A stretch of DNA of 64,000 nucleotides. It comes from Escherichia coli (lineage in GTDB: Bacteria; Pseudomonadota; Gammaproteobacteria; Enterobacterales; Enterobacteriaceae). Both the position numbers and the translations under genes were made by a program. A model generated the notes under the pieces. The model searched no databases, was not told the DNA's origin, and worked only from the letters and a program-made list of their open reading frames with translations. The DNA is taken from assembly GCF_002854065.1 (NCBI RefSeq), contig NZ_CP024147.1; one strand, 5' to 3'. Shown here in pieces: positions 33,722 through 64,000 of the stretch. Within the stretch, counting starts at the first letter, position 1. Each line of letters starts with the position of its first letter.

Positions 33722-33734
33722 TCAGGAGAAAATC

Positions 33735-34031: not shown

Positions 34032-34040
34032 GGAATTTAC

Positions 34041-35670: not shown

Positions 35671-35766
35671 TAGCTAAGCTTATACATATCTTTTACATCA
35701 GCAATCTATTGTTAATCTCCAATCAATGTTACGTTGTCATCTCTCTCATGCTTTGGAGGTAGTGAT

Positions 35767-35958: not shown

Positions 35959-35986
35959 TGTATGATGGTGTTTTTGAGGTGCTCCA

Positions 35987-36684: not shown

Positions 36685-36823
36685 GTTGGAGTCATTACCC
36701 GCGAAGGCAACGAAAAAAGCTAATTTATTTATTCATATATGAAAACAATGTAATAAATATTCGAATTGAAGAATTGAAAGAACACCAAGCCGCCTGATGG
36801 CGGTTTTTTATTGGAGACAAGAA

Positions 36824-37168: not shown

Positions 37169-37245
37169 CGCCTCACACTCGATGAGGCCTGTACATATCT
37201 GATAGATCCGCTATATGGCGGTTTATTTTTGCCTGGAGAATTAAG

Positions 37246-37437
37246 ATGACCGATACCAGCCTGATTCCTGAGAAAGAAGTGATGAACAAGCTCGGTGTTT
37301 CATCACGTCAGACAATCTGGAACTATACCAAACGGCACGGATTTCCGAAGCCAGTCAGAACCCACCCCAAATCATACCTTCGTGAAGCTGTTGAAGGGTG
37401 GATTCTTAACGGTGGCGTTAATCAGAAATGCTCCTGA
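37246..37437 (+). CDS. alpA: AlpA-family phage transcriptional regulator / excisionase-like
   Basis: 63-aa ORF with HTH (VSSRQTIWNYTKRHGFPKP), convergent with and adjacent to integrase. Confidence 0.7.
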   Translation: MTDTSLIPEKEVMNKLGVSSRQTIWNYTKRHGFPKPVRTHPKSYLREAVEGWILNGGVNQKCS

Positions 37438-38596: not shown

Positions 38597-38605
38597 AAAT
38601 AATAT

Positions 38606-38777: not shown

Positions 38778-40202
38778 ATGACAGACGCAGATAAACAACC
38801 TACCTTCCTCTTTCACGATTACGAAACCTTTGGCACGCACCCCGCGTTAGATCGCCCTGCACAGTTCGCAGCCATTCGCACCGATAGCGAATTCAATGTC
38901 ATCGGAGAACCCGAAGTCTTTTACTGCAAGCCCGCTGATGACTATTTACCCCAGCCAGGAGCAGTATTAATTACCGGTATTACCCCGCAGGAAGCACGGG
39001 CGAAAGGAGAAAACGAAGCCGCGTTTGCCGCCCGTATTCACTTGCTTTTTACCGTACCGAAGACCTGTATTCTGGGCTACAACAATGTGCGTTTCGACGA
39101 CGAAGTCACACGCAACATTTTTTATCGTAATTTCTACGATCCTTACGCCTGGAGCTGGCAAAACCGCAATTCGCGCTGGGATCTGCTTGACGTGATGCGC
39201 GCCTGCTATGCCCTGCGCCCGGACGGCATCAACTGGCCGGAAAACGACGACGGTCTGCCGAGCTTCCGCCTGGAACATCTCACCAAGGCCAACGGTATTG
39301 AACACAGTAACGCCCATGATGCGATGGCCGACGTTTACGCGACCATCGCCATGGCGAAGCTGGTGAAGGCCCAACAGCCAAAGCTGTTTGATTATCTGTA
39401 TGCCTACCGGGGCAAAAACAAGCTGATGACGCTGATTGACGTCCCGCAGATGAAGCCACTGGTGCATGTCTCGGGAATGTTTGGCGCCTGGCGCGGAAAC
39501 ACCAGCTGGATTGCGCCGCTGGCCTGGCATCCGGATAACCGTAATGCGGTGATCATGGTCGACCTGGCGGGCGACATCGCCCCGCTGCTCGAGCTGGATG
39601 CCGATACGCTGCGCGAGCGCCTGTATACGCCGAAGGCCGAGCTCGGCGACAGTTCGCCGGTGCCGATTAAGCTGGTGCATCTGAATAAGTGCCCGGTGCT
39701 GGCGCAGGCCAATACCCTGCGCCCAGAAGACGCTGACCGTTTAGGCATTAACCGACAGCACTGCCTGGATAACCTGAAACTGCTGCGCGATAACCCGCAG
39801 GTGCGCGAGAAGGTGGTGGCGATTTTTGCTGAAGCCGAGCCGTTTGTCGCATCGGACAACGTCGACGCCCAGCTTTATAACGGTTTCTTTAGCGACGCCG
39901 ACCGCGCGGCGATGAAAATCGTGCTGGAGACCGAGCCGCGCAATCTGCCGGCGCTGGACATTACCTTCGCCGACCCGCGTATTGAGAAGCTGCTGTTTAA
40001 CTTCCGCGCGCGCAACTTCCCCGGCACGCTGGATGAAAACGAGCAACAGCGCTGGCTGGAACACCGTCGGCAGATCTTCACCCCGGAATTTTTACAGGCC
40101 TACGCCCAGCAACTGGAGATGTTGTACGGTCAGTATGAGGGGAATAACGAGAAGCTATCGCTGCTGAAGGCGCTGTATCAGTACGTGCAGGAGATTGTTT
40201 AA
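38778..40202 (+). CDS. sbcB: Exodeoxyribonuclease I, with phage-supplied promoter and first ~11 codons (MTDADKQPTFLF...)
   Basis: 474-aa ORF with DnaQ-like exonuclease N-terminus (FLFHDYETFG); hairpin terminator 40211-40241 downstream. Confidence 0.9.
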   Translation: MTDADKQPTFLFHDYETFGTHPALDRPAQFAAIRTDSEFNVIGEPEVFYCKPADDYLPQPGAVLITGITPQEARAKGENEAAFAARIHLLFTVPKTCILGYNNVRFDDEVTRNIFYRNFYDPYAWSWQNRNSRWDLLDVMRACYALRPDGINWPENDDGLPSFRLEHLTKANGIEHSNAHDAMADVYATIAMAKLVKAQQPKLFDYLYAYRGKNKLMTLIDVPQMKPLVHVSGMFGAWRGNTSWIAPLAWHPDNRNAVIMVDLAGDIAPLLELDADTLRERLYTPKAELGDSSPVPIKLVHLNKCPVLAQANTLRPEDADRLGINRQHCLDNLKLLRDNPQVREKVVAIFAEAEPFVASDNVDAQLYNGFFSDADRAAMKIVLETEPRNLPALDITFADPRIEKLLFNFRARNFPGTLDENEQQRWLEHRRQIFTPEFLQAYAQQLEMLYGQYEGNNEKLSLLKALYQYVQEIV

Positions 40203-40255
40203 TTCAACGCAGCGACGCCGGAAAATCTTCCCGGCGTCGCTTGATGCCTGGGGCA

Positions 40256-40480
40256 TTATTTCTGTACGGTGATGGTCCACGCCGCATCGCCAGACTGCTG
40301 ATAGTCCGTGACCGTAAAGCCCTCTTCCGCCGCCCACTGCGGGATGGCTTCCGTCGCCTGAGTACAGTCGAACTCAATCACCAGCTGGTCGCCGCTGGCC
40401 AGTTCCGCCATCGCCGCCTTCGCTTCAATTAACGGGAACGGGCAAACCTGCGTGACTACGTCCAGTTTCTTCACAACCAT
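40256..40480 (-). CDS. yeeD: TusA-like sulfurtransferase
   Basis: 74-aa ORF with CPxP motif (VCPFPLIEAK). Confidence 0.85.
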   Translation of the reverse strand: MVVKKLDVVTQVCPFPLIEAKAAMAELASGDQLVIEFDCTQATEAIPQWAAEEGFTVTDYQQSGDAAWTITVQK

Positions 40481-40525
40481 TTTTTCTACTCCTTAAGCCG
40501 TTGCGGTTTTCAGTTTTGCTTTCCG

Positions 40526-41494
40526 CTACGGGCGAACATACAACATCCACGACGCGCACCACACGCCGAGAATCATAAATACCAGGCCAATCCAGCCCTG
40601 CCAGGTCATCATCGCCGTCATCACCAAACCGTTGCCGATCGAGCAGCCGCCGGCAATGCTGGCACCGAAGCCCATCAGTACGCCGCCACCCGCGCTACGC
40701 AGCGTGGTGCTGGCATCGGCAGCGCGGACGCGGAATTCACGGCTGGCTTTCGCGGCAATAAACGAACCGATAAAGATTCCCAGCACCAGGAAGACGCCCC
40801 AGTTGAGGTACTTGCTGTCACCCCCCACCAGGAACTGCAGGATATTGGCGGTCGGCGAGGTAATGCCAAGGCCAAACATACGTCCGGTGGCCTCACTCAG
40901 CGGCCAGGCCAGCAGGGCGATAAGGCCAATCAGCACGGCGGTCACAAACGGATGCCAACGCTTTTCAAACAGCAGATGCGCCAGGCCAGTGCGGCGCGGC
41001 GGCAGAGAAGCTACTTTGAGCTTTGGTTTGCTCAGCTCTTTGCGAACAAACCACAGGGTCACCGCCACCAGCAGAACGATAAGTGGCCAGACGGAGATAT
41101 TCAGGGTTTCGGCAATGCCGTTGTGAGTGGTCGTGTGTTGACCGAGGAATTTGTTAAGCCCAGCCGCGTGCGGTGAACGCATGATCGCGCTCATCACCAT
41201 ATAGGTGACCAGTGCAATCCAGCTGCCAATCAGCCCTTCCCCGGCACGATACCAGGTGCCGGTGGCGCAGCCTCCCGCATAAACGATACCGATACCAAAA
41301 ACAAATCCACCCACCACGGTGCCAAGCCACGGGAACGCGCCTGCATCGTACTGCACCAGGCCAAGCTGGATCAGGGCGAACACGCCGATACTCTGGATAC
41401 AGATAGCAATCAACAGTGCGTAAAACATGCGGTTATTTTTGGTGATATACATATCGCGAAAGCCACCCGTCAGGCAGAAACGACCGCGCTGCAT
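40526..41494 (-). pseudogene. yeeE: YeeE/YedE-family transporter, 5' end severed by IS1 (first ~14 codons lie beyond the IS at ~42283-42330)
   Basis: 322-aa membrane ORF abutting the IS1 end; minus-strand sequence after the IS encodes MIISGMICGAL..., completing the native N-terminus across the 9-bp duplication. Confidence 0.75.
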
Positions 41495-41560
41495 AACGAA
41501 TCCCAGGTGATGCTGCCAACTTACTGATTTAGTGTATGATGGTGTTTTTGAGGTGCTCCA

Positions 41561-41836
41561 GTGGCTTCTGTTTCTATCAGCTGTCCCTCCTGTTCAGCTA
41601 CTGACGGGGTGGTGCGTAACGGCAAAAGCACCGCCGGACATCAGCGCTATCTCTGCTCTCACTGCCGTAAAACATGGCAACTGCAGTTCACTTACACCGC
41701 TTCTCAACCCGGTACGCACCAGAAAATCATTGATATGGCCATGAATGGCGTTGGATGCCGGGCAACTGCCCGCATTATGGGCGTTGGCCTCAACACGATT
41801 TTACGTCACTTAAAAAACTCAGGCCGCAGTCGGTAA
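41561..41836 (+). CDS. insA: IS1 InsA
   Basis: 91-aa ORF. Confidence 0.9.
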
Positions 41837-42258
41837 CCTCGCGCATACAGCCGGGCAGTGACGTCATCGTCTGCGCGGAAATGGACGAACAGTGGGGCTA
41901 TGTCGGGGCTAAATCGCGCCAGCGCTGGCTGTTTTACGCGTATGACAGTCTCCGGAAGACGGTTGTTGCGCACGTATTCGGTGAACGCACTATGGCGACG
42001 CTGGGGCGTCTTATGAGCCTGCTGTCACCCTTTGACGTGGTGATATGGATGACGGATGGCTGGCCGCTGTATGAATCCCGCCTGAAGGGAAAGCTGCACG
42101 TAATCAGCAAGCGATATACGCAGCGAATTGAGCGGCATAACCTGAATCTGAGGCAGCACCTGGCACGGCTGGGACGGAAGTCGCTGTCGTTCTCAAAATC
42201 GGTGGAGCTGCATGACAAAGTCATCGGGCATTATCTGAACATAAAACACTATCAATAA
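41755..42258 (+). CDS. insB: IS1 transposase InsB
   Basis: 167-aa ORF (FTSLKK variant). Confidence 0.9.
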
Positions 42259-42460
42259 GTTGGAGTCATTACCCGAATCCCAGTAAAGCCCCGCAAATCA
42301 TGCCACTTATTATCATGTGCAACATAAGAATCAATTAACTCAATATTATCAGTCTTAAAATTATTCCTGACCCCGCCGGACGGCTCCAATAACCAAAAGC
42401 TCTATATTATTCCCGACGGTTATTAATATTGATTTTTTAATCACCCCACAAACTTAAGAC

Positions 42461-42490
42461 AAAAAAAACCGGAGGCCCAGACCTCCGGTT
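42461..42490 (-). terminator. Terminator downstream of plaP
   Basis: Hairpin ccggaggcccagacctccgg with A-run on plus strand (T-run on minus). Confidence 0.6.
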
Positions 42491-42515
42491 TTGCAACCAT
42501 CGTTTTTAAATTCAG

Positions 42516-43874
42516 TTATGCAACATCTTCGTACTGCGGAACCGGGTTGCGGAAGCTTTTGGTCACACAGGCCAGGTAGATCAGACCGATACCGGCCCAG
42601 ATCAGGCCCAGAACCATAGAGCTCTCTTCCAGGTTCACCCACAGTGCGCCAACGGTCAGCGCGCCGCAGATTGGCAGGAACAGGTACTGGAAGTGATCTT
42701 TCAGCGTCTTATTACGCTTCTCACGGATCCAGAACTGAGAGATAACGGACAGGTTCACGAAGGTGAACGCCACCAGCGCACCGAAGTTAATCAGCGCCGT
42801 TGCCATCACCAGGTCGAAGTTAATCGCCAGCAGCGCAATCGCGCCAACCAGGATGATGTTCATCGCCGGGGTGCGCCAGGTTGGATGCACGTAGCCGAAG
42901 AAGCTTTTCGGGAACACGCCATCACGGCCCATCACGTACATCAGACGCGCCACACCCGCATGCGCCGCCATACCGGAAGCCAGCACGGTAATGGTGGAGA
43001 AGATCAGCGCGCCAACCTGGAAGGCTTTACCCGCCACGTACAGCATGATTTCAGGCTGTGAGGCGTCCGGATCTTTGAAGCGAGAGATATCCGGGAAGTA
43101 GAGCTGCAGGAAATAGGTGGAGAAGATAAAGATCAGGCCACCAATCAGCGCCGTCAGGAAGATAGCACGCGGAATCACACGCTCAGCGTCTTTGGTTTCT
43201 TCAGACAGGTTGCTGATACCGTCAAAACCGGTAAAGGAGAAGCACAGAATCGTGGCCCCGGTAATCATAGGGATCACGTGCGCATCACCCGACCAGAACG
43301 GACGGTTGCTTGCCAGCGTACCGGCACCTTCGCCGTGCGCCACGCCATAAATCACCATACCTAGGATCACGGCAATCAGTACCACCTGGAACACCACGAT
43401 CACGGTGTTAAAGTTGGCGACAGATTTGATGCTGCGCAGGTTAAAGGCGGTCATAAAGGCAACCAGTGCAATCACGAATACCCATGACGGTATCGACGGC
43501 ACCAGCGCTTCGAAATAGATTTTTGCCAGCAGAATGTTGATCATCGGCGCGAACAGATAATCGAGCAGCGAAGACCAACCCACCATAAAGCCAACGGTCG
43601 GGCTGATGGATTTCTGGGCATAAGTGTAGGCAGAGCCCGCCGAAGGATAACGGCGCACCAGCTTACCGTAGCTCAGCGCGGTGAACAGAATTGCCACCAG
43701 AGCGAAGGCATAAGCTGTTGGCACGTGACCATCGGTCATGCCAGATACGATACCGAACGTATCAAACAGCGTCATCGGCTGCATATAGGCCAGGCCCATC
43801 ATAACAACCGGAATAAGCGTAAGCGTTTTACGTAATTCCACGCGAGAGGTGTTTGGAGTAACGTTATGCGACAC
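42516..43874 (-). CDS. plaP: Amino acid/polyamine permease (putrescine importer PlaP)
   Basis: 452-aa 12-TM APC-family ORF; synteny. Confidence 0.85.
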
Positions 43875-44221
43875 GGTCAGTCTCCATTACGGCGATGGCC
43901 GGCGCAAAATTGAAAAATTGCCCCATTTTTTTTCTGTTTCCTCAGCGACAACGACTGTCGTTTTTTAAGTAAGTATCTATCCGGTACGAAGCCCGGCCTC
44001 TTTAATTTGATGGTTGTTTTGATGTAAAAAAAATAACCGACGCGGCAAGCACGTCGGTTAATCTCAATTTTTTACATTCGACATATTTTGCCCCAAACGG
44101 TAGCAAAAAGACAAGCCGCTGAGAGCATAATCAGCACGCCTTCTCGTCTAAACGACTGATAATTCAGCAACTCCCGAATCATAAATCTCATCAATAGCAC
44201 TATTTGCTAAAACAGCGGCGA

Positions 44222-45043
44222 TTATTCCATCGGCATACGTAACGGGTCAGGATACTGATACTCAAAGCCGAGCTCGCGGCAAATGAGATTACCGTCGATG
44301 ATTTTGCCTTTTCCATTACCGCTGTCGCTAAAGCTCGGAACCGCTAACCCCAGCTCACGCGCCATTTGCGGATAGAAAATACCGCGAGCGGGATGCAACG
44401 GCGCACAAATGTTATAAATGTGTCCACCCTTCGGCGCCTGTAATAAAAGCGTAATAGCAGAGACAACATCTTCCAGATGGACGAGATTCACGCCGTGCTG
44501 ACCATCCGGCGCGGATTTACCTGCGAAGAAACGTCCCGGATGCCGATCCGGCCCCACCAGCCCCGCCAGACGCAGAATATCCACCGACGTCCCCGGCAAT
44601 TGATGAAGCCAGTCTTCCAGCTCTTTTAATACTCTGCCGCTAGCGGTAACCGGTTCACGCGGCGTGCTCTCTTTTACCAGCCCTTCTTCTTTACCGTAGA
44701 CCGAAGTGGAGCTGGTAAAGATAATGCGCGGAATCTGGTACGCCAGCGCGGTGTCCACAATCTCCTGCACCGCCTGATGATAGAAATCTTCGCCCGGACC
44801 GCTGCGGCGCGCGGGGAGCGTAATGACCAGCGCGTCAACATTCATTAAAGCATCAAGGTCATCAGCCTCACAGACCAGCTGCGGATCGAGCCGCAACGGA
44901 TAGCTATCAATCCCGCACATCCGTGCGGCTTCCACGCCATCCTCTGTCGTTTTACTGCCCGTTACCTGCCAGCCGCGCGCCATCAACGACAGCGCCAGCG
45001 GCATACCCAGCCACCCTAAACCGACAATTGCCACCTTCTTCAT
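44222..45043 (-). CDS. yeeZ: NAD-dependent epimerase/dehydratase family protein
   Basis: Start at internal ATG (MKKVAIVGLGWLG Rossmann motif) with AGGAGA RBS; 274 aa. Confidence 0.8.
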   Translation of the reverse strand: MKKVAIVGLGWLGMPLALSLMARGWQVTGSKTTEDGVEAARMCGIDSYPLRLDPQLVCEADDLDALMNVDALVITLPARRSGPGEDFYHQAVQEIVDTALAYQIPRIIFTSSTSVYGKEEGLVKESTPREPVTASGRVLKELEDWLHQLPGTSVDILRLAGLVGPDRHPGRFFAGKSAPDGQHGVNLVHLEDVVSAITLLLQAPKGGHIYNICAPLHPARGIFYPQMARELGLAVPSFSDSGNGKGKIIDGNLICRELGFEYQYPDPLRMPME

Positions 45044-45149
45044 TGCGCTATCTCCTGGTTCATCCTGCACTCCTCTCATAAGGCTACGCCACAGCGAGAA
45101 AACTGACAATTTATAGTGGTAACATGAATTGATTTAATGAATGAAAAAA

Positions 45150-45190
45150 GCGCTTGCGCTCAACGACAAAAGTGGTTTAGGTTAAAAGAC
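45150..45190 (+). promoter_or_regulatory. his operon promoter region (approximate)
   Basis: Location upstream of hisL; TAGGTTAAAAG -10-like element as remembered for the enterobacterial his promoter. Confidence 0.4.
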
Positions 45191-45221
45191 ATCAAGTGAA
45201 TAGTCATTCAACGAGAAATTT

Positions 45222-45272
45222 ATGAGCCGCGTTCAATTTAAACACCACCATCATCACCATCATCCTGACTAG
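45222..45272 (+). CDS. hisL: his operon leader peptide (7 consecutive His codons)
   Basis: atg agc cgc gtt caa ttt aaa cac cac cat cat cac cat cat cct gac tag = [16 protein letters not shown]. Confidence 0.95.
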
Positions 45273-45369
45273 TCTTTCAGGCGATGTGTGCTGGGAGACA
45301 TTCAGATCTTCCAGTGGTGCATGAACGCAAGAGAGCCCCCGGAAGATCATCTTCCGGGGGCTTTTTTTT
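45273..45369 (+). promoter_or_regulatory. his attenuator with terminator hairpin 45335-45369
   Basis: Perfect 13-bp stem gcccccggaagat/atcttccgggggc followed by T8, between hisL and hisG. Confidence 0.9.
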
Positions 45370-52413: not shown

Positions 52414-52423
52414 CGGATAAATT

Positions 52424-52452
52424 TGAGCCCGGCGATAACACCGGGCTTTATT
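52424..52452. terminator. Bidirectional terminator between hisI and ugd
   Basis: Hairpin gcccggcgataacaccgggc flanked by T/A runs. Confidence 0.6.
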
Positions 52453-52469
52453 ATTGCTGCACGAACCTG

Positions 52470-53636
52470 TCAATCATTACCAAACAGATCGCGGGTATAC
52501 ACCTTCTCTTTCACATCAGCCAATTCTTCCGCCATTCGGTTAGAAATGATGACATCCGCTTCTTGCTTAAATGCATCCAAATCGCGTACAACGCGGGAAT
52601 TAAAGAATTCATCTTCTTTCATCGCAGGTTCATACACAATCACTGGAATGCCTTTCGCTTTGATTCGTATCATAATCCCTTGAATCGAAGATGCGCGGAA
52701 ATTGTCGGATCCTGACTTCATGACGAGGCGATATACCCCAACCACTTTCGGCTTGCGGGCCAGGATGGAATCGGCAATAAAATCCTTGCGGGTACGGTTA
52801 GCGTCAACAATCGCACCGACGATGTTATTTGGCACAGACGCATAATTTGCCAGCAGTTGTTTAGTATCTTTCGGGAGGCAATATCCACCATAACCAAAAG
52901 ATGGATTGTTATAGTGATTACCGATGCGCGGGTCCAGGCACACGCCTTCAATAATCTGGCGGGAGTTCAGGCCCAGGCTTTCCGCATAGCTATCCAGCTC
53001 GTTGAAATAAGCCACGCGCATCGCGAGGTAGGTGTTCGCGAATAGCTTGATAGCTTCGGCTTCGGTCGAGTCGGTGAACAGCGTCGGGATATCCTTCTTC
53101 ACTGCCCCTTCCTGCAGCAGCGCGGCAAAACGCTCGGCACGCTCAGAACGTTCGCCGATAACGATACGCGACGGATGCAGGTTGTCGTACAGCGCACGGC
53201 CTTCGCGCAGGAATTCCGGCGAGAAGAAAATATTGTCGATACCCAGTTTTTCTTTAATCGAATTGGTAAAGCCTACCGGAATGGTAGATTTGATAACCAT
53301 CACCGCGTTGGGGTTGATTTCAACGACGTCACGGATAACAGACTCAACGCTGGACGTATTGAAATAGTTCGTTTTGGGGTCGTAATCGGTCGGAGTGGCG
53401 ATGATCACATAGTCTGCATCGCGATAAGCATCGCGCTTATCAGTGGTCGCACGGAAATTCAGCGGTTTGGTCGCCAGATACTCTTCGATCTCTTTGTCGA
53501 CGATCGGCGACTGTTTCTGATTCAGCATGTCGACCTTGGCCTGAACGATATCCAGGGCCACCACTTCGTGGTGCTGGGCGATCAGAATGCCGTTCGACAG
53601 GCCGACGTAACCTGTTCCTGAAATAGTTATCTTCAT
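52470..53636 (-). CDS. ugd: UDP-glucose 6-dehydrogenase
   Basis: 388-aa ORF ([16 protein letters not shown]...GGYCLPKD catalytic Cys motif). Confidence 0.9.
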
Positions 53637-53839: not shown

Positions 53840-55246
53840 TTAATCCAGCCATTCGGTGTGGAACACACCTTCTTTATCAGTGCGTTTATAGGTATGCGCG
53901 CCGAAGTAGTCACGCTGAGCCTGAATCAGGTTCGCCGGCAGTACCGCAGCGCGGTAGCTATCGTAGTACGCCACTGCTGCAGAGAAGGTCGGTACCGGAA
54001 TACCGTTCTGCACAGCATAGGCCACCACGTCACGCAGCGCCTGCTGGTATTCATCAGCGATATTTTTGAAGTACGGTGCCAGCAGCAGGTTGGCGATACT
54101 CGCGTTTTCAGCGTAGGCGTCGGTGATTTTCTGCAGGAACTGTGCACGAATGATGCAGCCCGCGCGGAAGATCTTCGCGATTTCGCCGTAGTTCAGATCC
54201 CAGTTGTACTCGTCAGACGCGGCACGCAGCTGAGAGAAGCCCTGCGCGTAGGAGACGATTTTACCCAGGTACAGTGCGCGACGCACTTTCTCAACGAACT
54301 CTGCTTTATCGCCAGCCAGTTTAGCCTGCGGGCCAGTCAGCACTTTAGATGCCGCCACGCGCTGGTCTTTCAGGGAGGAGATGTAGCGCGCGAAAACAGA
54401 TTCAGTGATCAGCGACAGCGGTTCGCCCAGGTCCAGAGAGCTCTGGCTAGTCCATTTACCGGTGCCTTTGTTCGCCGCTTCGTCGAGGATCACATCAACC
54501 AGGTATTTACCGTCTTCATCTTTTTTGGTGAAGATGTCTTTGGTGATGTCGATCAGGTAGCTGCTCAGCTCGCCTTCATTCCACTCGGTGAAGGTGGTTG
54601 CCAGCTCTTCGTTAGACAGGTTCAGGCCGCCTTTCAGCAGAGAATAGGCTTCAGCAATCAGCTGCATGTCGCCGTATTCGATACCGTTGTGGACCATTTT
54701 CACGTAATGACCCGCACCGTCAGCACCGATGTAGGTTACGCAAGGCTCGCCGTCTTCAGCTACAGCAGCAATCTTGGTCAGGATAGGCGCAACCAACTCA
54801 TACGCTTCTTTCTGGCCGCCAGGCATGATAGATGGGCCCTTCAGCGCGCCCTCTTCGCCGCCGGATACGCCGGTACCGATGAAGTTAAAGCCTTCAGCAG
54901 ACAGCTCACGGTTACGACGAATGGTATCCTGGAAGAAGGTGTTACCACCATCAATGATGATGTCACCTTTATCAAGGTAAGGTTTCAGGGAATCGATGGC
55001 AGCATCGGTGCCCGCGCCTGCTTTCACCATTAACAGGATACGACGTGGGGTCTCAAGAGACTCGACGAACTCCTTGACCGTGTAGTGAGGAACCAGCTTT
55101 TTGCCTGGATTCTCAGCGACAACTTCTTCGGTTTTTTCACGGGAGCGGTTGAAGATAGAGACGGTATAACCACGGCTTTCGATGTTGAGCGCCAGGTTGC
55201 GCCCCATCACAGCCATACCGACTACGCCGATTTGTTGCTTAGACAT
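53840..55246 (-). CDS. gnd: 6-phosphogluconate dehydrogenase (decarboxylating)
   Basis: 468-aa ORF ([21 protein letters not shown]...). Confidence 0.95.
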
Positions 55247-55417
55247 TACATACTCCTGTCAGGTAGTATCTGTCTATGAACAGACAGAATTTAAGAAATT
55301 ATATATTAGGAGAACGACAAGTTGTATAAAGAAATAGATGTTTGAGTGAAATTAATAACTGTCATAAGTAACTAAAAAAACGCATAGCGACAAGCTCAGA
55401 TAAGTTGTTGCTCAATA

Positions 55418-56563
55418 TTAGAGCACTTCTTGCATTGTGAGTTTATTATAGATTTGAACGGTTTTTCGTATGACAACGGTAGATGAATACTTTTCCTCTA
55501 CTCGCTTTCTGGCATTCTGCCCCATCTTAGTGCGCTCAAGAGGATCGCTAATAAGGATACCAAGCTTCTGAGAAAATAGGTTCACATTTCCTTTAGGCAC
55601 AAGGAAACCGTTATAACCGTCAAGTATTAAACTCCCACAACCACCAGTGTCAAAACTTATAACAGGACGACCGATTGCACCGGCTTCTAAAAGAATTCGA
55701 GGAATACCTTCAGAGTAAACAGATGGCAAAGCGACTATATCCACACTTTCAATTAATTCCTTGATATCGCTACGCTTGCCCAGCCAAATGATATCACCGG
55801 AGTTATGCCACTCTTCTATCTGAGTTATACTTATAGCGTCGCGATCATTGTCAACAAGAATGCCCGCAACTAATATCTCAAATTCGATGCCTTGTAATTT
55901 TAAAATTCTACTAGCATCAATTAACGTGCGTAGCCCTTTACTCCAAAGCATGCGACTTGCAAAAAAAACTTTAACCTTGGTATTATTAGGTGGTGTACTA
56001 TAACAAAAATAGTCTATATTAATACCTGCGCCATCAATAACTTCAGTTTTATTTTTTGGAATATCTAATAGTTCAATTATTTTTTGCTGATCTTTTTTAT
56101 GTTCAAAGAGGATACAACAATCAATATTTAAGAAAAATCTTCTATACATATTAGCAATTAAGAACTTAACCATTTGGTAAATGACCTTATTGCTTTCAAA
56201 AACTCTACCTAACCCAACAAAACTATAGACCATTTTTTTGTTTCGGATTCTGGCCCATAAACAACTAATCACACCAGGTTTAATCGTGACGCTATGCACA
56301 ATATCAGGATTAATTTTATTCAATGTTCTAAATGAGCGAGTTATATCGCAAAAGAAAACAACAGGATTGATATTTTGCTCTTTTATTTTACTATCAATAC
56401 ACTTAAATCCTAAACTAGTAAAGCGATCCAGAATAGACTTGTCAGAATAATTCGCAAAAATATAGACATCATATCCTGCTTCCAGAACTGATAAGGCACG
56501 ATCTAACCAATGTAATTCGAAATACCAAGCGGAGTTCACAAAATAACATATCTTTATTTTCAT
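55418..56563 (-). CDS. Glycosyltransferase family 1 (GT4-type), O-antigen cluster
   Basis: 381-aa ORF with C-terminal GT1 motif (...EGIPRILLEAGAIGRPVISFDTGG...); AT-rich. Confidence 0.7.
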   Translation of the reverse strand: MKIKICYFVNSAWYFELHWLDRALSVLEAGYDVYIFANYSDKSILDRFTSLGFKCIDSKIKEQNINPVVFFCDITRSFRTLNKINPDIVHSVTIKPGVISCLWARIRNKKMVYSFVGLGRVFESNKVIYQMVKFLIANMYRRFFLNIDCCILFEHKKDQQKIIELLDIPKNKTEVIDGAGINIDYFCYSTPPNNTKVKVFFASRMLWSKGLRTLIDASRILKLQGIEFEILVAGILVDNDRDAISITQIEEWHNSGDIIWLGKRSDIKELIESVDIVALPSVYSEGIPRILLEAGAIGRPVISFDTGGCGSLILDGYNGFLVPKGNVNLFSQKLGILISDPLERTKMGQNARKRVEEKYSSTVVIRKTVQIYNKLTMQEVL

Positions 56564-56718
56564 ATTTAAAACTCACATCTCCTTCCTTAAGCTATTATCC
56601 TGTTAAAATTTAAAACCTCAGCACGTCATCTTATACTTCGAAGAAAATATCAGTTTTAAATAAAGCAAAACAAATCATCCCTGATTTGTTTGTGAATCAA
56701 AATAAAGACTATTACAAA

Positions 56719-58878
56719 TCACCAACACACAAGCATGTATTCATACACCAGATCACGCTCAGGCTGGAGGTGAACAAACTTGAATTGATAACCCATATTG
56801 AGATTTTCAACAAATTTCTTACATTCAAAAATTTGCTCTGGCTGCAACCACAAGTGATAAACAGAAATCAGCAACACGGGCTTGTGTTTTTTGATTGTCT
56901 CGATTGCACCATTAAGGGCATTAATCTCATAGCCTTCAATATCGAATTTAATCAAACCAACACGATCTTCAAACGTCAGACTATCAATAGTGACCGATTG
57001 AACTTTAATGTCAGACTGCTCGTCTTCAACAACACATGAGCCTACTCCATCATCCCCAACTTTCATCATCGAAAGTTCGCCAGATACATTGCTGACAGCA
57101 ACATTTAAGGGTTTAATAGTATCATTTAAATATTGATGATTACGCTCAAGATTCCGAACCATACAGTTATAATTATCAGCTACAGGTTCTAAGGCAAGTA
57201 CTTCTTTAAATCCAAAGCTAGCGAACATGATAGCTGTATCACCAACCCAAGCCCCACAATCTATAGCAACAGAGCCTTTGAATTCTTCAGTGAATCGGCC
57301 TGGAAGATACTTCAAGCCAGCTTTGAAATAGTTGGTTGCTAGAGTAACCGGTAATTCAGATAGATCAAGATGCTGAATTAATTCTTTTTCGTGACGTAAG
57401 ATTGAATCAATATTTGACAATATAACTCTATCTTCATCCGTAAATAATGTTAAAGATAAAGGTAATTCCAACTCAATGCCTTGATGTTCAAAGTATGGCA
57501 GTAATTCATAAAAACCAAATAATTTCCTCTCATTTTGAAGGCTAAATTCATCAAGGCCGCGTTTGAATTCTTCACGTAGTTTAGAGATCCGAGAGGAATT
57601 TACCTTCATGTAATAATAAAACTGGTTAGTAGGCGCTACTTTTATTAGTACAGAACCATTTTTATTCTGTCCTGAAATGACATCGACTTTATCAGTAAGT
57701 TCTTTCGACATCTTCAAAAATGAAGAATCTAACTCCTCCCGAAAATGTTTGGAAAGTAAAGATGAGGAGGAATCCATTTTTGATGAAACAGCATTAATAA
57801 TTGGTTCAATTATTAATTTGTTAGTAATAAAACGTAGTTTGGAAACGACTTTCTTTTTAATCCTGTTTCTTGTCTGAACTGTTTTTATAATCCTGTTACT
57901 CATCAACTCATTATAAATTGGAAGAACATGATTATAATAATAGTCATTTGTATCGGAGGAAAATGAAACATTAGAAGTTACTGGCTGGAAACCTTCTTCT
58001 TTAGCCTGTTCAAAAACAGCAATAGCAGCTTCCTGATATGACTTCAATCCATCGCCTCTCAAACGAGAAGAATGGAAAACTAAATCAAAAAGATGGTGAA
58101 AATAAAAATGATTCAGGTATTTTTGAAACGTTCCAACACTAAGAAGGTGTTTTTTTATAATATCATAATTATTAAAAGATATTAATGCCTTGTCAGCACT
58201 AGCACTGGATGAGCCCACGTTCATGACCCTGTAGTTATAAACAGGCACATTCAAAAGAGTTATCTTTTCTACAGAGGCATAGGTGATGAATTTAAAGGGC
58301 ATATCCTGATATGAAGCCCCAGGACTTTCATAGAAGCGAATATGATTTTCTTCAAGAAAATCTCTTCTATACAAGCCAGTCCAGATTGATGATTCAAGCA
58401 AGAAAAGCTCAACTGAATTTTCTGGTACAATTTCTGCCAAGTTATCATTATCAAATGTACATAAATGCGCAAGGGACTGAGTATTGATTACAACTTCATT
58501 ACTTATTCTATTGAAACTTGCTTTAATGACCGGATTCGGGATTTTATTATAAGCGTCTATTAGACGCTCAAACATATCAAGCTGAACCCAATCGTCTGTT
58601 TCGATGATAGAAATAAAATCGCCGCTTGCAACATCTAGCCCAGAGTTGATTGCAGCTCCGTAACCTGCGTTTTTTTTATGGATAGCAATAATTCTTGTAT
58701 CGCTCGAAGCGTATCGATCAATAATCTGAGGGCAAGCATCAGGGCTACCGTCATTGACTATTATTATTTCCAGATTCTTATATGTTTGAGACAGAACACT
58801 GTCGAGACATTGCTCTAAATAAACTTCGCCGCCGTATACAGGTAAAATAACGGAAATTTTAAAGATATCATCACCCAT
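56719..58878 (-). CDS. Fused glycosyltransferase family 2 (N-terminal) - FkbM-family methyltransferase (C-terminal)
   Basis: 719-aa ORF; N-terminus ISVILPVYGGEVYLEQCLDSVLSQTY...IVNDGS...DDW (GT2); C-terminus AIDCGAWVGDTAIMFA...FDIEGYEINAL (FkbM-type SAM methyltransferase). Confidence 0.65.
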   Translation of the reverse strand: MGDDIFKISVILPVYGGEVYLEQCLDSVLSQTYKNLEIIIVNDGSPDACPQIIDRYASSDTRIIAIHKKNAGYGAAINSGLDVASGDFISIIETDDWVQLDMFERLIDAYNKIPNPVIKASFNRISNEVVINTQSLAHLCTFDNDNLAEIVPENSVELFLLESSIWTGLYRRDFLEENHIRFYESPGASYQDMPFKFITYASVEKITLLNVPVYNYRVMNVGSSSASADKALISFNNYDIIKKHLLSVGTFQKYLNHFYFHHLFDLVFHSSRLRGDGLKSYQEAAIAVFEQAKEEGFQPVTSNVSFSSDTNDYYYNHVLPIYNELMSNRIIKTVQTRNRIKKKVVSKLRFITNKLIIEPIINAVSSKMDSSSSLLSKHFREELDSSFLKMSKELTDKVDVISGQNKNGSVLIKVAPTNQFYYYMKVNSSRISKLREEFKRGLDEFSLQNERKLFGFYELLPYFEHQGIELELPLSLTLFTDEDRVILSNIDSILRHEKELIQHLDLSELPVTLATNYFKAGLKYLPGRFTEEFKGSVAIDCGAWVGDTAIMFASFGFKEVLALEPVADNYNCMVRNLERNHQYLNDTIKPLNVAVSNVSGELSMMKVGDDGVGSCVVEDEQSDIKVQSVTIDSLTFEDRVGLIKFDIEGYEINALNGAIETIKKHKPVLLISVYHLWLQPEQIFECKKFVENLNMGYQFKFVHLQPERDLVYEYMLVCW

Positions 58879-60199
58879 TGTCTTTCAAAACCTTTCGCAA
58901 AGTGGATTGGAAATTATAGCGCTGATTAAAGTTGGCAAAGACATTTCGACTATGAGTAGCCATGTTAATGAGCTCATCTTTTTTAAGCGATGTAATGAAC
59001 TCAGCACACTTTTGCGCAGATTCGATCTGATGGTACGCTTCTGTCGACTCAATCCCTTCCATAGCAGCTTTAGTTGAAACTAATGGAACACCATAAGAAA
59101 GCGCCTCCAGACATTTAACTTTCAACCCTGAAAGTAATTCATCTGGATTGATAATTACATCGCAGGAATGGTAGAACTTATCAAGGCTCTCACAAAAACC
59201 GAGGATATTAACAAAACCAGGGTACTGTCTACCTTCAAGAGCTCCGCAAATTGTTCCTGAAATATCGAGTCTTACATTATGATCAAGTTTACTTAAGCTA
59301 TCGATAAAATTGTTGATCGCAACGACATTTGGATAGTGCCCAGAGGCCATAAAGCCAACAACGATCTTTTTATTGGATGTTGGGACATAATCAATAAAGT
59401 TTACGTCCAGAATAGGTGGCTGAACAATGACTTGGGAACTAACATTCTCCCTGAAGTAACGGCCTTCTGCTTCTTGAATAGCAAATATATAATTAGCTCT
59501 TGATAACCCAATGGTTTCTTCTTTCTTCGATGTAGAGAAATAGAATTTATCTTGTGAAATACCAATTTTTGCCATTCGAGTGTTCCTCTTAGCAAAAACA
59601 TCGTGAGTATCGATCACTGAGACTGTATTAGGTTTAAGGTATAAACACAATTTTGACAGGAAGACATAATTAACAATTGCAATCTGATAATTATTCATCG
59701 CAGAAAGTGCAGCAACAAATTGACATATTTCATCATCAAGCCAATCGTCAATTTTATTTCCATCAGGAATTATTTGCTGATTGACATCGTGTCTTAGAGT
59801 GCCGAACTTTCCGTTCCGACATTTTATATTATAAGTATAATCCCAATCAACACTATTTGAATCCCAAGGTGAATTATTGAAAACAATAGCGTGAATTGTG
59901 AATCCTAGGGATTTTAATGTCGCAATTTTTGTATCAATATTTTTCCCGACGGCATCATTTCCATAAAAAGGCATAATGACTAGCGCATTTTTATCTGAAC
60001 TTGACTTTAAAATTTTTGGAAAAACAGTAAATTCATTTGCATTTTGTTCAGCATTAACGTTCAACGCTTTAATTAATAACCGCCTTGGGTAATGAGCGTT
60101 AACCATGAGGGCAAATAATTTCCAAAGCTTACGTGCGAGCCTGGTATACCTGAATTTAACAAAAGCTTTCTTCAAAAATCTGGTGATTGTGTTTTTCAT
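58871..60199 (-). CDS. Glycosyltransferase (GT1-like C-terminal domain), O-antigen cluster
   Basis: 442-aa ORF; C-terminal region with E(x7)E-like GT1 features; overlaps neighbours by 4-8 nt. Confidence 0.5.
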   Translation of the reverse strand: MKNTITRFLKKAFVKFRYTRLARKLWKLFALMVNAHYPRRLLIKALNVNAEQNANEFTVFPKILKSSSDKNALVIMPFYGNDAVGKNIDTKIATLKSLGFTIHAIVFNNSPWDSNSVDWDYTYNIKCRNGKFGTLRHDVNQQIIPDGNKIDDWLDDEICQFVAALSAMNNYQIAIVNYVFLSKLCLYLKPNTVSVIDTHDVFAKRNTRMAKIGISQDKFYFSTSKKEETIGLSRANYIFAIQEAEGRYFRENVSSQVIVQPPILDVNFIDYVPTSNKKIVVGFMASGHYPNVVAINNFIDSLSKLDHNVRLDISGTICGALEGRQYPGFVNILGFCESLDKFYHSCDVIINPDELLSGLKVKCLEALSYGVPLVSTKAAMEGIESTEAYHQIESAQKCAEFITSLKKDELINMATHSRNVFANFNQRYNFQSTLRKVLKDNG

Positions 60200-60726
60200 A
60201 ATGGAATAGATAACAGATCAGAATAAACTGGATATGTGGCATAACCTACAGCAGGAATCTGATGGCCCGTCTCAACTAAAAAAACTCGGCCCAACCCAAA
60301 CTTTAATCCGGCTTCTACATCACCCAGTTTATCACCAACAATAAAAGATTGTTTTAAGTCAATGGAATAATCACGAGCTGCAGACTCGAACATACCCGTA
60401 TTAGGTTTGCGGCACGAACAATCACATCGATATTCAGGGACAATTCCATCTGGATGATGAGGGCAATAATAGATATCTAATATATCGATACCCTGTGATT
60501 TCAAGATACCCCTATACCACTTTGTCAATTTATCATAATCAGATAAGGTGTAATATCCTTTGGCAATTCCGGCCTGATTTGTCACAATGATTATTTTATA
60601 ACCATGAGCAATAAATCTTTTCATGCCACTGATACAGTTTTTGGTAAATTCAAAATCTTCAATTTTATATAGATAATTGACTTCCTTATTAATTACACCA
60701 TCGCGATCAAGAAATGCCACTTTCAT
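60196..60726 (-). CDS. gmhB: D-glycero-D-manno-heptose 1,7-bisphosphate phosphatase (HAD family)
   Basis: 176-aa ORF with HAD motif FLDRDGVIN and zinc-binding C..H.H..C..C signature typical of GmhB. Confidence 0.75.
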   Translation of the reverse strand: MKVAFLDRDGVINKEVNYLYKIEDFEFTKNCISGMKRFIAHGYKIIIVTNQAGIAKGYYTLSDYDKLTKWYRGILKSQGIDILDIYYCPHHPDGIVPEYRCDCSCRKPNTGMFESAARDYSIDLKQSFIVGDKLGDVEAGLKFGLGRVFLVETGHQIPAVGYATYPVYSDLLSIPL

Positions 60727-61400
60727 TTAAATCTCTCACATGCAATGAAATAATCTTCAGGAATTCCTATATCGATAAAATATGAGGAATTAACGTAGGC
60801 CTTAAACTCTCCTTTGAATTTAGGCAAAAAATCAGATTCAAAAGAAAATTTATTCCCAGCAAACTTGCTCATAATTTCCTTTGAGACAATATAAATTCCA
60901 CTGTTAATAATTCCAGGGCCAGTTCTTCCCTTTTCTACCATAGCATTAACATTAGATTTCTCATCTAAATCTAAACTACCATAACGAGCGACATCATTAA
61001 CTTCGACACCAGATATTAGAAGATCTGTTCCCTTCGAAGCTTCTATGAAGTCACTATAATTAAGCTCGCAGTACGTATCACCATTAAGAACAATGAATTT
61101 ATCCGTTCTGACTTTAGAACTGGCATATTTAATTGCGCCACCAGTTCCTAGAGGTTCTTTTTCGACAACAAAGTCAACCTCACAACCAACAGGGTTGTCA
61201 TGGACAACCCTGTCGATGATATAGTCAGCTTTGTAGGATAATGATAGTATAATTCTGGTAGCTCCTTGTTTTTCAAGATACGTCATTAGACGATAAAGAA
61301 ATGGTTGCCCTGAAATATCTACCATTGGCTTAGGAAGCTCGCCACTAACACTCTTCAGACGAGTACCTAGCCCTCCTGCCAAAATAACTACATCATACAT
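60723..61400 (-). CDS. hddC: D-glycero-alpha-D-manno-heptose 1-phosphate guanylyltransferase
   Basis: 225-aa ORF with nucleotidyltransferase motif ILAGGLGTRL; sits within gmhA/hddA/gmhB set. Confidence 0.7.
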   Translation of the reverse strand: MYDVVILAGGLGTRLKSVSGELPKPMVDISGQPFLYRLMTYLEKQGATRIILSLSYKADYIIDRVVHDNPVGCEVDFVVEKEPLGTGGAIKYASSKVRTDKFIVLNGDTYCELNYSDFIEASKGTDLLISGVEVNDVARYGSLDLDEKSNVNAMVEKGRTGPGIINSGIYIVSKEIMSKFAGNKFSFESDFLPKFKGEFKAYVNSSYFIDIGIPEDYFIACERFK

Positions 61401-61402
61401 AA

Positions 61403-61993
61403 TTATTTATCTTCTGGTTTGAAAATGGCACGTTCAACAATTGCGCAGATCATATGACCAATGCAAATATGGCATTCTTGAATGTATGGTGTAATTTTAG
61501 AAGGTACATTAATTGAATAGTCTACCAAATCTTTAAGCTTACCTGCTTCACCACATAGCGCCACGCTTGTCACACCCAGTTCTTTTGCCAGTTCCATCGC
61601 GTTAATGATATTAACGGAGTTACCTGAAGTACTGATGCCAATGAAAACATCACCTGGCTTGCTTTGAGCTTGCAGTTGTCTTGCAAATAGTTTATCAAAT
61701 CCGTAGTCATTGCCGATAGCCGTTAGCATCGAGGTATCAGTGGTGATAGCAATGGCTGGTAATCCTGGTCTATCGAAAAAGAAGCGACTGACGAACTCAG
61801 CCGCGATATGCTGAGAATCAGCAGCACTACCACCATTCCCGGCAAGAATTACTTTATTCCCGTTTTTATATGCATTGATAATCAAATCTGCAACTAAAGA
61901 GATTTGGCTCAATACACTGTCAGATTCCTGAAGCAATTTTTTTACTGCAATGCTGTCATCAAGATATGCTTTAATATAATTTACATTGTCCAT
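61403..61993 (-). CDS. gmhA: Phosphoheptose isomerase (SIS domain)
   Basis: 196-aa ORF with SIS motifs (ILAGNGGSAADSQH, ISTSGNS). Confidence 0.8.
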   Translation of the reverse strand: MDNVNYIKAYLDDSIAVKKLLQESDSVLSQISLVADLIINAYKNGNKVILAGNGGSAADSQHIAAEFVSRFFFDRPGLPAIAITTDTSMLTAIGNDYGFDKLFARQLQAQSKPGDVFIGISTSGNSVNIINAMELAKELGVTSVALCGEAGKLKDLVDYSINVPSKITPYIQECHICIGHMICAIVERAIFKPEDK

Positions 61994-63009
61994 GAATATG
62001 CTCCATCCTCGACAAATTGGAATTTATAGACTTCGCCACCAAACTCTTGTAGTTTACGTTCGATCAACTGTTTTCGCTCCGGTTCAACGAATAGCATCAT
62101 AAAACCACCGCCACCGGCACCTGAAACTTTCATTGACTTAACACCGATACTAAACACTTCCTTCTCGATTTTCTCAATCATCGGATTACTGATTGACGAT
62201 GAGGTGTTTTTCTTACTTTCCCATGCATCCAGGAATGTCGCGGCCATAGCATCGATATCAGATTTGAGTAAGTGTTCTTTAATCTGATATGCTGATTCTT
62301 TAACTTTATGCATAGCCATCAGTTTAGACTCTTTGTCACTCTCTAAAGATCTAATCTGGTCATCAATAATTTTCGCAGAGTCTCTCGAAGCCCCTGTAAA
62401 ATAAAGAATCAGGGATGACTCTAACTCATTTATTATATATCTACGAATTCTAAGTGGGTTAACAATAACGCGATTACCTTCATAAAACTCCATGAAATTA
62501 AAACCACCAAATGTTGCAGCATACTGATCTTGTTTACCACCTGATAAACCACAGTCTACTCGCTCAATCTTGAATGCTAACTGGGCCAGATCATATTCTC
62601 CAAGAGGCAGAGAATACATTTGCCGTAGTCCTTCAAGCATTGAAACAACAACCGTCGATGATGACCCCAAACCGCTACCTGCAGGAGCGTCAGAATGAGT
62701 AATGATACGAACCGGTTTTAATTCGCCGTCAAAATAATCATTCATGACTCGAAGGTAAACTGCTCGATGCAGTTTTAGCTTCCCTTCAATCGTTACACCA
62801 TTGGTAAGATCAATCTCTTCTCTGATATTAAGGTCGGTTGCCTCAAAAATAACTTTACTACCTTCAAGCTCATCATCAATGTAAGCATACGCATACATAT
62901 TGATGGTCGCATTCAGTACACACCCACCGAATGTATCGCTATAAGGTGAAACATCTGTCCCACCTCCTGCAATGCCTAAACGTAGAGGCGCTTTGCTTCT
63001 AACTTTCAT
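61981..63009 (-). CDS. hddA: D-glycero-alpha-D-manno-heptose 7-phosphate kinase (GHMP kinase)
   Basis: 342-aa ORF with GHMP kinase motif PAGSGLGSSS. Confidence 0.75.
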   Translation of the reverse strand: MKVRSKAPLRLGIAGGGTDVSPYSDTFGGCVLNATINMYAYAYIDDELEGSKVIFEATDLNIREEIDLTNGVTIEGKLKLHRAVYLRVMNDYFDGELKPVRIITHSDAPAGSGLGSSSTVVVSMLEGLRQMYSLPLGEYDLAQLAFKIERVDCGLSGGKQDQYAATFGGFNFMEFYEGNRVIVNPLRIRRYIINELESSLILYFTGASRDSAKIIDDQIRSLESDKESKLMAMHKVKESAYQIKEHLLKSDIDAMAATFLDAWESKKNTSSSISNPMIEKIEKEVFSIGVKSMKVSGAGGGGFMMLFVEPERKQLIERKLQEFGGEVYKFQFVEDGAYSWTM

Positions 63010-63025
63010 AACAAAAGAATCCCTA

Positions 63026-64000
63026 TTAACGATTCAGAGGAATGCGGCCAGATGCGATTTCTTTTCTCCAGTGCTGGAGTAAATCACGAAACATATCTGT
63101 CGCTTTTATTTCTGGTTTCCAGTCAATGAAATTCCTGATTTTAGTATTATCAAACATTTGGTAATCGGCATCAATTGGACGCAGGCGATCTGTATCTGTA
63201 ACAACTTCAATATCGTCACGAGTGCTAAAGCTCAGTAAAAGGTCTATAACCTCAGGAAGTTTGAATGCTTCTTCACCTGCAATATTAAATGCTTCGCCGA
63301 AAGGAACATTCCCTTTTTCGCTCTCCAGAGCTAATAAATAGTATGCACGCACAGCGTCTCTAGCATCTTGGAAAGTACGTACGCTTGCTAAATTGCCAAC
63401 TTTTAATTTTGGTTCCTGATGTCCAGCTTCGATCAAGGCAATCTGCTTGGCAACAGTACTTTCGAAAAATACATCACTACGGCGTGGGCCTGTATGTGTG
63501 CCCATGCGAGTGATAAATGTACGCAACCCATATGCCTCGCCATAAAAACGCCCTAAATAATCGGTACCAATTTTACTAATGCTGTAAGGGCTAGCGCCAT
63601 GGAACTGCGTATCTTCGTTTAAAGCTTCACCTACTTTTGCTCTACCATAAACTTCACTAGAAGAACAAACATGAACAACAGGATCATAACCATCTTGTTG
63701 TTTTAGTTTTTTAATGCATTCCAACAGATTGGCAGTACCAATAATATTGGTCTGCAAGGTCTCGATCGGAATATCGAATGAGGTGCGGGGAAATGACTGC
63801 GCAGCAAGGTGGAAAATGAATTTTGGACGCTTCGCTTCAATTAAGTTATACATGGAAGTATAGTCATTAAGGTCTGCGTATTGGATGAATACTCTATCCT
63901 TTTTATTAATCCGGTCTGTTAAATGATAGATATTATCCATTGGCTCTTGCCAACGCATCATTCCAATTACTGTGTCGGTTGTATTCTCTAAAATATAATC
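63026..64000 (-). CDS. NAD-dependent epimerase/dehydratase (Gmd/Rmd-like): probable GDP-heptose 4,6-dehydratase or 4-reductase; N-terminus lies beyond window end
   Basis: 311+ aa SDR-family ORF with catalytic S..YxxxK (SSSEVYG...YSISK); frame stays open to the window edge. Confidence 0.65.
   Translation of the reverse strand, partial: DYILENTTDTVIGMMRWQEPMDNIYHLTDRINKKDRVFIQYADLNDYTSMYNLIEAKRPKFIFHLAAQSFPRTSFDIPIETLQTNIIGTANLLECIKKLKQQDGYDPVVHVCSSSEVYGRAKVGEALNEDTQFHGASPYSISKIGTDYLGRFYGEAYGLRTFITRMGTHTGPRRSDVFFESTVAKQIALIEAGHQEPKLKVGNLASVRTFQDARDAVRAYYLLALESEKGNVPFGEAFNIAGEEAFKLPEVIDLLLSFSTRDDIEVVTDTDRLRPIDADYQMFDNTKIRNFIDWKPEIKATDMFRDLLQHWRKEIASGRIPLNR

Follow-up and report, generated by a model that had tools for sequence, protein, structure and literature searches.

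Positions 55418-64000 of the window, by which we mean the whole 64,000 nucleotide (nt) stretch of Escherichia coli contig NZ_CP024147.1 that was analyzed, carry the half of the E. coli O52 O-antigen gene cluster that lies nearer to gnd, encoding the synthesis of a 6-deoxy-heptose O chain, a reading to which we assign a probability of roughly 95%. The locus is the O52 cluster itself, not a relative of it, and is already known (Feng et al. 2004; review PMC7685785). An initial annotation of the window had proposed a guanosine diphosphate (GDP)-heptose or 6-deoxyheptose O-antigen locus beside gnd, and had named E. coli O52 as a possible match; both suggestions were right. The assignment is read directly from gene content, gene order, identity to the published O52 proteins and family membership. 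An exact-sequence look-up in UniProt returned Q6E7E3 for HddC, Q6E7E4 for GmhA, Q6E7E5 for HddA and Q6E7E6 for full-length DmhA, and two neighbors encoded outside the window, DmhB and Fcf2, match Q6E7E7 and FCF2_ECOLX exactly. WbrX and WbrW share 90% clusters with Q6E7E0 ('WbrX') and Q6E7E1 ('WbrW'), and the exact sequence of the GT4-family glycosyltransferase encoded next to gnd is also present in the database. Exact matches of this kind are far beyond chance. Entries Q6E7E0-Q6E7E7 belong to the O52 cluster that Feng et al. reported in 2004 (J Bacteriol 186:4510, cited through PMC7685785).

When positions 55250-64000 were searched by megablast against 5426 complete E. coli genomes, the same DNA was found at full length and 99.9-100% identity in four of them. 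NZ_CP182139.1 is 100% identical over the shared 8751 bases. The annotation places the strain in serogroup O52, a rare one by this count. The window end falls inside the cluster, as the initial annotation had recognized, and the extension toward galF was read in the matching genomes, where dmhB, wzt and wzm follow just past the window and the cluster runs on to galF. Of the two transporter types that had been considered, wzx/wzy and wzm/wzt, it is wzm/wzt that these genomes carry. In NZ_CP182139.1 the order past the window is dmhB (RmlD-like reductase), wzt, wzm, a GT2 gene, glf/fcf2, fcf1, rmlA (rfbA), rmlB (rfbB), galF and then the colanic acid genes. There the RefSeq name for wzt/wzm is 'O52 family O-antigen export ABC transporter' (ABC, ATP-binding cassette), while an NCBIfam scan gave generic ABC matches only. 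From galF to gnd the gene order matches that of O52, namely rmlB-rmlA-fcf1-fcf2-GT-wzm-wzt-dmhB-dmhA-hddA-gmhA-hddC-gmhB-wbrW-wbrX-GT (GT, glycosyltransferase), with the in-window half taken from the window itself and the remainder from NZ_CP182139.1. In comparison with the published O52 cluster (Feng et al. 2004) position and order are the same and nothing of substance differs, except that the window has the gnd-proximal half only, with dmhA cut by the window end.

Every gene of 55418-64000 lies on the minus strand. At the window edge is dmhA (63026-64000), encoding a Gmd-like short-chain dehydrogenase/reductase (SDR), the frame of which is open at the edge; the gene has 342 codons in NZ_CP182139.1, so that its first 18 codons lie beyond 64000. 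It is followed by hddA (61981-63009), encoding the D-glycero-D-manno-heptose-7-phosphate 1-kinase of the GHMP family, gmhA (61403-61993), a second copy of the sedoheptulose-7-phosphate isomerase gene dedicated to the O antigen, hddC (60723-61400), and gmhB (60196-60726), encoding D-glycero-D-manno-heptose-1,7-bisphosphate 7-phosphatase, named in RefSeq as the alpha-anomer phosphatase. Three genes lie between the heptose genes and gnd. The first, wbrW (58871-60199; RefSeq start eight codons later), encodes a GT-B glycosyltransferase of 442 amino acids (aa) with a GT1/GT4-like C-terminal domain. In the 719-aa product of the second, wbrX (56719-58878), a helical linker joins an N-terminal GT2 domain to an FkbM-type methyltransferase domain at the C-terminus. 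The gene adjoining gnd, which closes the cluster, encodes the GT4-family glycosyltransferase (55418-56563; 381 aa as the longest open reading frame, 373 aa from the RefSeq start at 56539). The initial annotation had counted three glycosyltransferases here; three genes are indeed present, but the middle one is a GT2-FkbM fusion and only two are plain glycosyltransferases. Flanking the cluster at its downstream edge is gnd (53840-55246, minus strand; NF006765, 769 bits). Beyond it ugd (52470-53636, minus strand; NF011631, 786 bits) directly adjoins hisIE, with no wzzB between them.

The genes are tightly packed, as had been noted from the sequence, with 4-nt ATGA overlaps between gmhB and hddC and between wbrW and gmhB, overlaps of 13 nt between hddA and gmhA and 8 nt between wbrX and wbrW, and a gap of 2 nt between gmhA and hddC. 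Where genes in the cluster do not overlap the gaps are 2-16 nt, the exceptions being 155 nt before the GT4 gene and 171 nt before gnd. A terminator scan found no convincing intrinsic terminator on the minus strand inside the cluster, and promoter and terminator consensus scans within it stayed at background level; clear terminators do occur after gnd and hisIE. A JUMPstart element (56 bits) with the ops motif GGCGGTAGCGTG is located between galF and rfbB, and with it the 16 genes look like one RfaH-type operon. The guanine-plus-cytosine content is 0.32-0.42 in the cluster, 0.50-0.55 in ugd and gnd, and 0.55-0.63 in his. The AT-richness relative to his and gnd that had been claimed is confirmed, but the his/gnd baseline taken as native is itself foreign and of Kluyvera type, as described below.

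It is improbable that the cluster is present yet unexpressed in this strain, leaving it rough or O-non-typeable through a lesion outside the window. At least four copies of IS1 are found in the window, one of them interrupting tsuA, and half of the cluster lies out of view. However, all eight window genes are intact and identical or nearly so to the reference proteins, and the window is 99.98% identical to the O52-cluster strain CUWW06 over 42274-64000, with no insertion.

The expected families were ranked first by NCBIfam for all four of the GDP-heptose enzymes GmhA, HddA, GmhB and HddC. GmhB (TIGR00213, 169.8 bits against a cut-off of 149.6) was the sole one of the four to pass its equivalog cut-off. 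GmhA scored 191.2 bits against TIGR00441 (E 1.1e-56; cut-off 209.45), HddC 187.9 bits against NF049965 (E 1.9e-55; cut-off 300) and HddA 384.5 bits against NF049969 (E 5e-115; cut-off 600). With scores below the cut-offs, the names draw on the rank of the best hit, on homologues in PDB and on sequence identity with named proteins; the NCBIfam models are built on distant, Campylobacter-type members, which lowers the formal call and not the functional inference. HddA matches the solved heptose kinases 4usm, 3k85 and 4n3o with E values of 1e-105 to 4e-88. DmhA is identical at 265 of 341 positions (77.7%, E 3e-181) to the solved heptose-specific 4,6-dehydratase 7US5, as compared with best E values of about 1e-28 to 1e-32 against GDP-mannose dehydratase structures and 153 bits against the gmd equivalog model, for which the cut-off is 415. 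Open reading frames, NCBIfam, Pfam and PDB matches thus bear out the set of gmhA, hddA, hddC, gmhB-like and Gmd-like SDR genes that had been proposed.

According to the review PMC7685785, 6-deoxy-D-manno-heptose (6d-D-manHep) is the sole heptose of any E. coli O antigen and occurs in O52 only, its GDP-activated form being made by dmhAB, hddAC and gmhAB. The same review lists O52 among the few wzm/wzt serogroups, with ABC-transporter export and a heterodisaccharide repeat. Sugar composition and ABC-transporter dependence are taken here from that literature.

Several points weigh against the reading as a 6-deoxy-heptose O-antigen cluster. HddA, HddC, GmhA and DmhA all fall under the curated equivalog cut-offs of NCBIfam. 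The transporter and fucofuranose genes are not in the window and are supplied by genomes that match it at 100% over the 8.75 kb in common. DmhA and DmhB of O52 are without biochemical confirmation (PMC7685785), and DmhB, a short protein of 277 aa encoded outside the window, weakly resembles RmlD-type reductases only. Finally, a coiled-coil ruler of the WbdD or WbbB kind was looked for in WbrX, and its AlphaFold2 (AF2) monomer model gives low-confidence linker helices only, offering no support for ruler-type length control.

In one alternative the O chain would contain D-glycero-D-manno-heptose without the 6-deoxy modification, the Gmd-like SDR being either inactive or part of a hexose pathway such as that from GDP-mannose to D-rhamnose. 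We consider this very unlikely. A non-deoxy variant does exist in nature, as the Kluyvera genomosp. 3-type cluster has lost dmhB and most of dmhA and has kept hddA, gmhA, hddC, gmhB and the glycosyltransferases, and the low score of DmhA against the gmd equivalog model could be counted in favor of this alternative. However, the in-window dmhA is intact, identical to the O52 protein and closest to the heptose-specific dehydratase, and the published O52 sugar is 6d-D-manHep (PMC7685785). The cluster is also without manB or manC. A hexose assignment of the SDR and kinase, which had been put forward as an outcome that would overturn the proposal, was not obtained, the SDR being far closer to 7US5 than to Gmd and the kinase reaching E 1e-105 against solved heptose kinases. 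That the locus encodes a capsule (K antigen) is the least credible alternative of all, for although such GDP-heptose pathways are best known from capsules (Campylobacter, Burkholderia) and the closest solved homologues of DmhA and HddA come from capsule systems, the genes occupy the galF-gnd O-antigen site behind JUMPstart, the wzm/wzt genes are of the O-antigen ABC-2 type and annotated 'O52 family', the only wza/wzb/wzc nearby are those of the separate colanic acid cluster, and the literature treats the locus as the O52 O antigen.

With the O52 reading retained, the cluster would be transcribed as one long minus-strand operon from JUMPstart/ops after galF to gnd, the window holding its downstream part. 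GmhA would isomerize sedoheptulose 7-phosphate, HddA would phosphorylate C1, GmhB would remove the 7-phosphate, and HddC would carry out the guanylyltransferase step. DmhA is then predicted to take out water across C4/C6 to give a 4-keto-6-deoxy intermediate; the activities of both DmhA and DmhB in E. coli are putative. This route is established in Aneurinibacillus, Yersinia pseudotuberculosis O:2a and the Campylobacter jejuni capsule, as far as the cited literature reports. The enzyme of the C. jejuni capsule (WcbK/DdahA; 7US5, Xiang et al. 2022, as cited in PMC10680097) is the one that DmhA so closely matches; the difference lies in the O52 product going into an ABC-transporter-dependent O antigen, where it is paired with D-fucofuranose. 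DmhB, the putative reductase, is short, RmlD-like and only weakly similar to solved reductases. The second precursor, dTDP-D-fucofuranose (dTDP, deoxythymidine diphosphate), would be supplied by rmlB, rmlA, fcf1 and fcf2, all outside the window; the Fcf1/Fcf2 branch of O52 has been characterized enzymatically. Heptose and D-fucofuranose would be polymerized into an O chain of disaccharide repeats. Its assembly on undecaprenyl diphosphate, on the cytoplasmic side, would fall to WbrW, the GT4 protein, the GT2 domain within WbrX and the GT2 protein encoded outside the window, and the finished chain would be exported by Wzm/Wzt. Any assignment of individual glycosyltransferases to linkages is at this point putative. 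The O52 cluster has one glycosyltransferase above expectation (PMC7685785).

WbrX was analyzed further for its domain composition. Pfam places PF00535 at residues 9-137 (3.5e-31) and PF05050 at residues 540-679 (2.1e-16), and the match to TIGR01444 is above the cut-off (93.3 bits; cut-off 37.7). The AF2 monomer model has a mean predicted local distance difference test (pLDDT) score of 80.9 and consists of a confident GT-A domain (1-330), followed by helices, a small alpha/beta region and the methyltransferase domain (537-719). The two long helices, 334-370 and 377-402 (region 334-402), are modeled with pLDDT of 45-60. Foldseek searches with the model returned GT2 enzymes as top matches, which are generic and say nothing about mechanism. 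Full-length relatives of WbrX are few, with the best representatives 71% and 42% identical. WbrW contains PF13692 at residues 280-400 (6.8e-11). For the GT4 gene all NCBIfam matches are GT4, far under the equivalog cut-offs, and RefSeq names the product 'glycosyltransferase family 4 protein' in the 100% identical genome.

Because the cluster encodes no methyltransferase other than the FkbM domain of WbrX, and the repeat unit is without methyl, this domain is a candidate terminator, which probably caps the non-reducing end with methyl and so would halt elongation. A minor 3-O-methyl-6-deoxyhexose has reportedly been described for O52. The putative methyltransferase of O52 has been proposed as the chain terminator before, and WbrX has been predicted to be bifunctional (PMC7685785). 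Similarities to the polymannose systems of E. coli O8/O9a with the WbdD terminator are evident in cytoplasmic assembly, Wzm/Wzt export and the proposed methyl cap. However, the O52 methyltransferase is FkbM-type and fused to a GT2 domain, whereas WbdD is a separate kinase/methyltransferase protein. O52 is also without a confidently predicted coiled-coil ruler, and its polymer is a heterodisaccharide.

The cluster is part of a much larger tract of foreign DNA. A syntenic block of about 67 kb, running from sbcB to yegD, covers window positions 38794-64000 and continues onward in NZ_CP182139.1 (about 2899900-2966400). Starting at the 5' end of sbcB, it takes in tsuBA, plaP, yeeZ, the complete his operon, ugd and gnd, then the O52 cluster; beyond that come galF, the entire set of colanic acid genes, yegH, asmA, dcd, udk and alkA, and at the far end yegD. 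The part within the window, from sbcB to the O52 cluster, replaces E. coli sequence. The block is 66-86% identical to ordinary E. coli versus 94-99% to Kluyvera chromosomes. Identity to E. coli C41(DE3) is 98-99.5% across window positions 9408-23583 and falls from about 38794 onward, with 77.7% at sbcB-tsuA, 82.7% at plaP, 73% at yeeZ, 81.4% at his, 73% at ugd and 85.6% at gnd. In CUWW06 the identity to E. coli stays low (66-81%) across galF, all wca genes, yegH, asmA, dcd, udk, the decayed dgcE, alkA and yegD, and is back to 95.5-98% at mdtA. With 5420 complete E. coli genomes the his operon shares 81.4-81.9% identity; values of at least 99% are reached only in the four cluster carriers. The block as such is present in only four to five of the 5426 genomes, the fifth, SY3626_hybrid, keeping the wzc-yegD part only.

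Kluyvera species came out on top when HisIE was scanned against species-representative genomes. Kluyvera genomosp. 3 YDC799 aligns unbroken to window positions 42274-62426 at 97.0%, reaching about 98% in plaP, his, ugd, gnd and the GT4 gene (gnd 98.2%, ugd 98.3%). For other Kluyvera chromosomes, which were compared over window positions 38805-45300, identity is 99.1-99.3% in plaP-hisL and 94.4-94.6% in sbcB-tsuA. On the far side of the block WcaM, WcaJ, Wzc, AlkA and MdtA share 90% clusters with Kluyvera proteins. The simplest reading of these alignments is that a single homologous replacement, with Kluyvera DNA taking the place of E. coli chromosome, would have brought the O antigen with it. 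It is quite likely that O52 is in effect a Kluyvera O antigen, with a contiguous replacement of about 67 kb that is real and was directed from Kluyvera to E. coli. That genera exchange such loci is generally well documented, and a precedent is the transfer of Klebsiella O3 to E. coli as O9a together with his-linked DNA (Sugiyama et al. 1998, as cited in PMC7685785). No paper linking O52 with Kluyvera was found in the literature searched, and of everything in this analysis only the derivation of the surrounding 67 kb from Kluyvera may add to published knowledge. It would represent a clean, datable inter-genus replacement of about 67 kb of core chromosome in which O antigen, his operon and colanic acid cluster moved together.

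Several smaller features of the block were noted. The plaP-yeeZ interval (window 43875-44221) lacks the yeeY gene that ordinary E. coli has there, which matches the Kluyvera order. The spacer between ugd and hisIE is 56 nt (52414-52469), and HisIE has 199 aa versus 203 aa in ordinary E. coli. A wzzB gene is lacking from the block, and a tblastn search with E. coli WzzB gave no match in the window. The idea that the absence of wzzB between ugd and hisIE is tied to this O-antigen type was rejected, as wzzB is also missing there in several Kluyvera species with other clusters. In CUWW06 the block lacks yegI, pphC and yegL of ordinary E. coli, and at 23945-26074 and 36242-37657 of the retrieved locus (outside the window, in or at the edge of the block) there are dgcE pseudogene fragments and an mdtD with an internal stop.

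Clusters of the O52 type were also found in other genera. In Kluyvera genomosp. 3 (CP022114.1, YDC799 type) the order is the same, with 98-99.9% identity in the outer genes and the his/ugd/gnd flank. These Kluyvera clusters (CP022114.1, L088 and L089) keep hddA, gmhA, hddC and gmhB, but dmhB is lost and dmhA is reduced to a 3' remnant of about 207 bp in the wzt-hddA interval (e.g. 7299-7718 in L088). Their wbrX, wbrW, gmhB, hddA and wzt are 92-94.5% identical to those of O52. Since the YDC799 type is without dmhB and has diverged central genes, the E. coli copy does not come from exactly that lineage. The dmhAB-deleted variant is predicted to use D-glycero-D-manno-heptose in place of the 6-deoxy sugar. 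As a natural deletion in the donor genus, it could be used to test discrimination by the glycosyltransferases between 6-deoxy and normal heptose donors. Enterobacter roggenkampii (CP116249.1, 1610839-1632998) carries a complete O52-type cluster with 99.2-100% nucleotide identity from fcf1 to the GT4 gene, whereas its flanks are its own (gnd 93.6%, ugd 79%, hisIE 83%), with an extra SDR gene between ugd and hisIE. A near-identical cluster between host flanks means that here the cluster alone moved between genera recently. Enterobacter cloacae O23, the only wzm/wzt serotype in PMC7198725, was considered as a carrier of the same cluster and rejected, since its wzt primers have at least 5-8 mismatches throughout the O52-type loci.

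The region of the window preceding the block contains a partly deleted prophage (22294-38600) between dacD and sbcB, with baseplate and tail genes and an integrase at 37418-38596. It sits exactly at the left edge of the Kluyvera-type block. At the same dacD-sbcB site CUWW06 has a full prophage of about 38 kb, and other O52-cluster strains (L093 and L096) have none. Near dacD the remnant includes, adjacent to that gene, an Acyl_transf_3 gene (PHROG O-acetyltransferase / O-antigen acetylase) at 24082-25152 on the minus strand. A relative of it, 87.5% identical, is found in only two complete genomes, both of O52-cluster strains. The O52 cluster is without an acetyltransferase gene. The O52 polymer is reportedly partly O-acetylated, which together with the lack of such a gene in the cluster makes the acyltransferase at 24082-25152 a candidate modifier.

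The four IS1 copies are at 8635-9408, 31520-32287, 35932-36704 and 41506-42274. Between the second and third lies a 3.6-kb stretch of unrelated early genes of lambdoid type (Erf-like, Ssb and Ea22-like). The copy at 41506-42274 lies near the 5' end of tsuA (yeeE) with a target duplication of about 9 bp; tsuA is intact in CUWW06. At the other end of the window, positions 1-8624 (yeeJ-shiA-amn-yeeN) are 93.4% identical to E. coli C41(DE3) versus 99.5% for the next 9 kb, and may represent an older, second tract of recombination or just a variable region.

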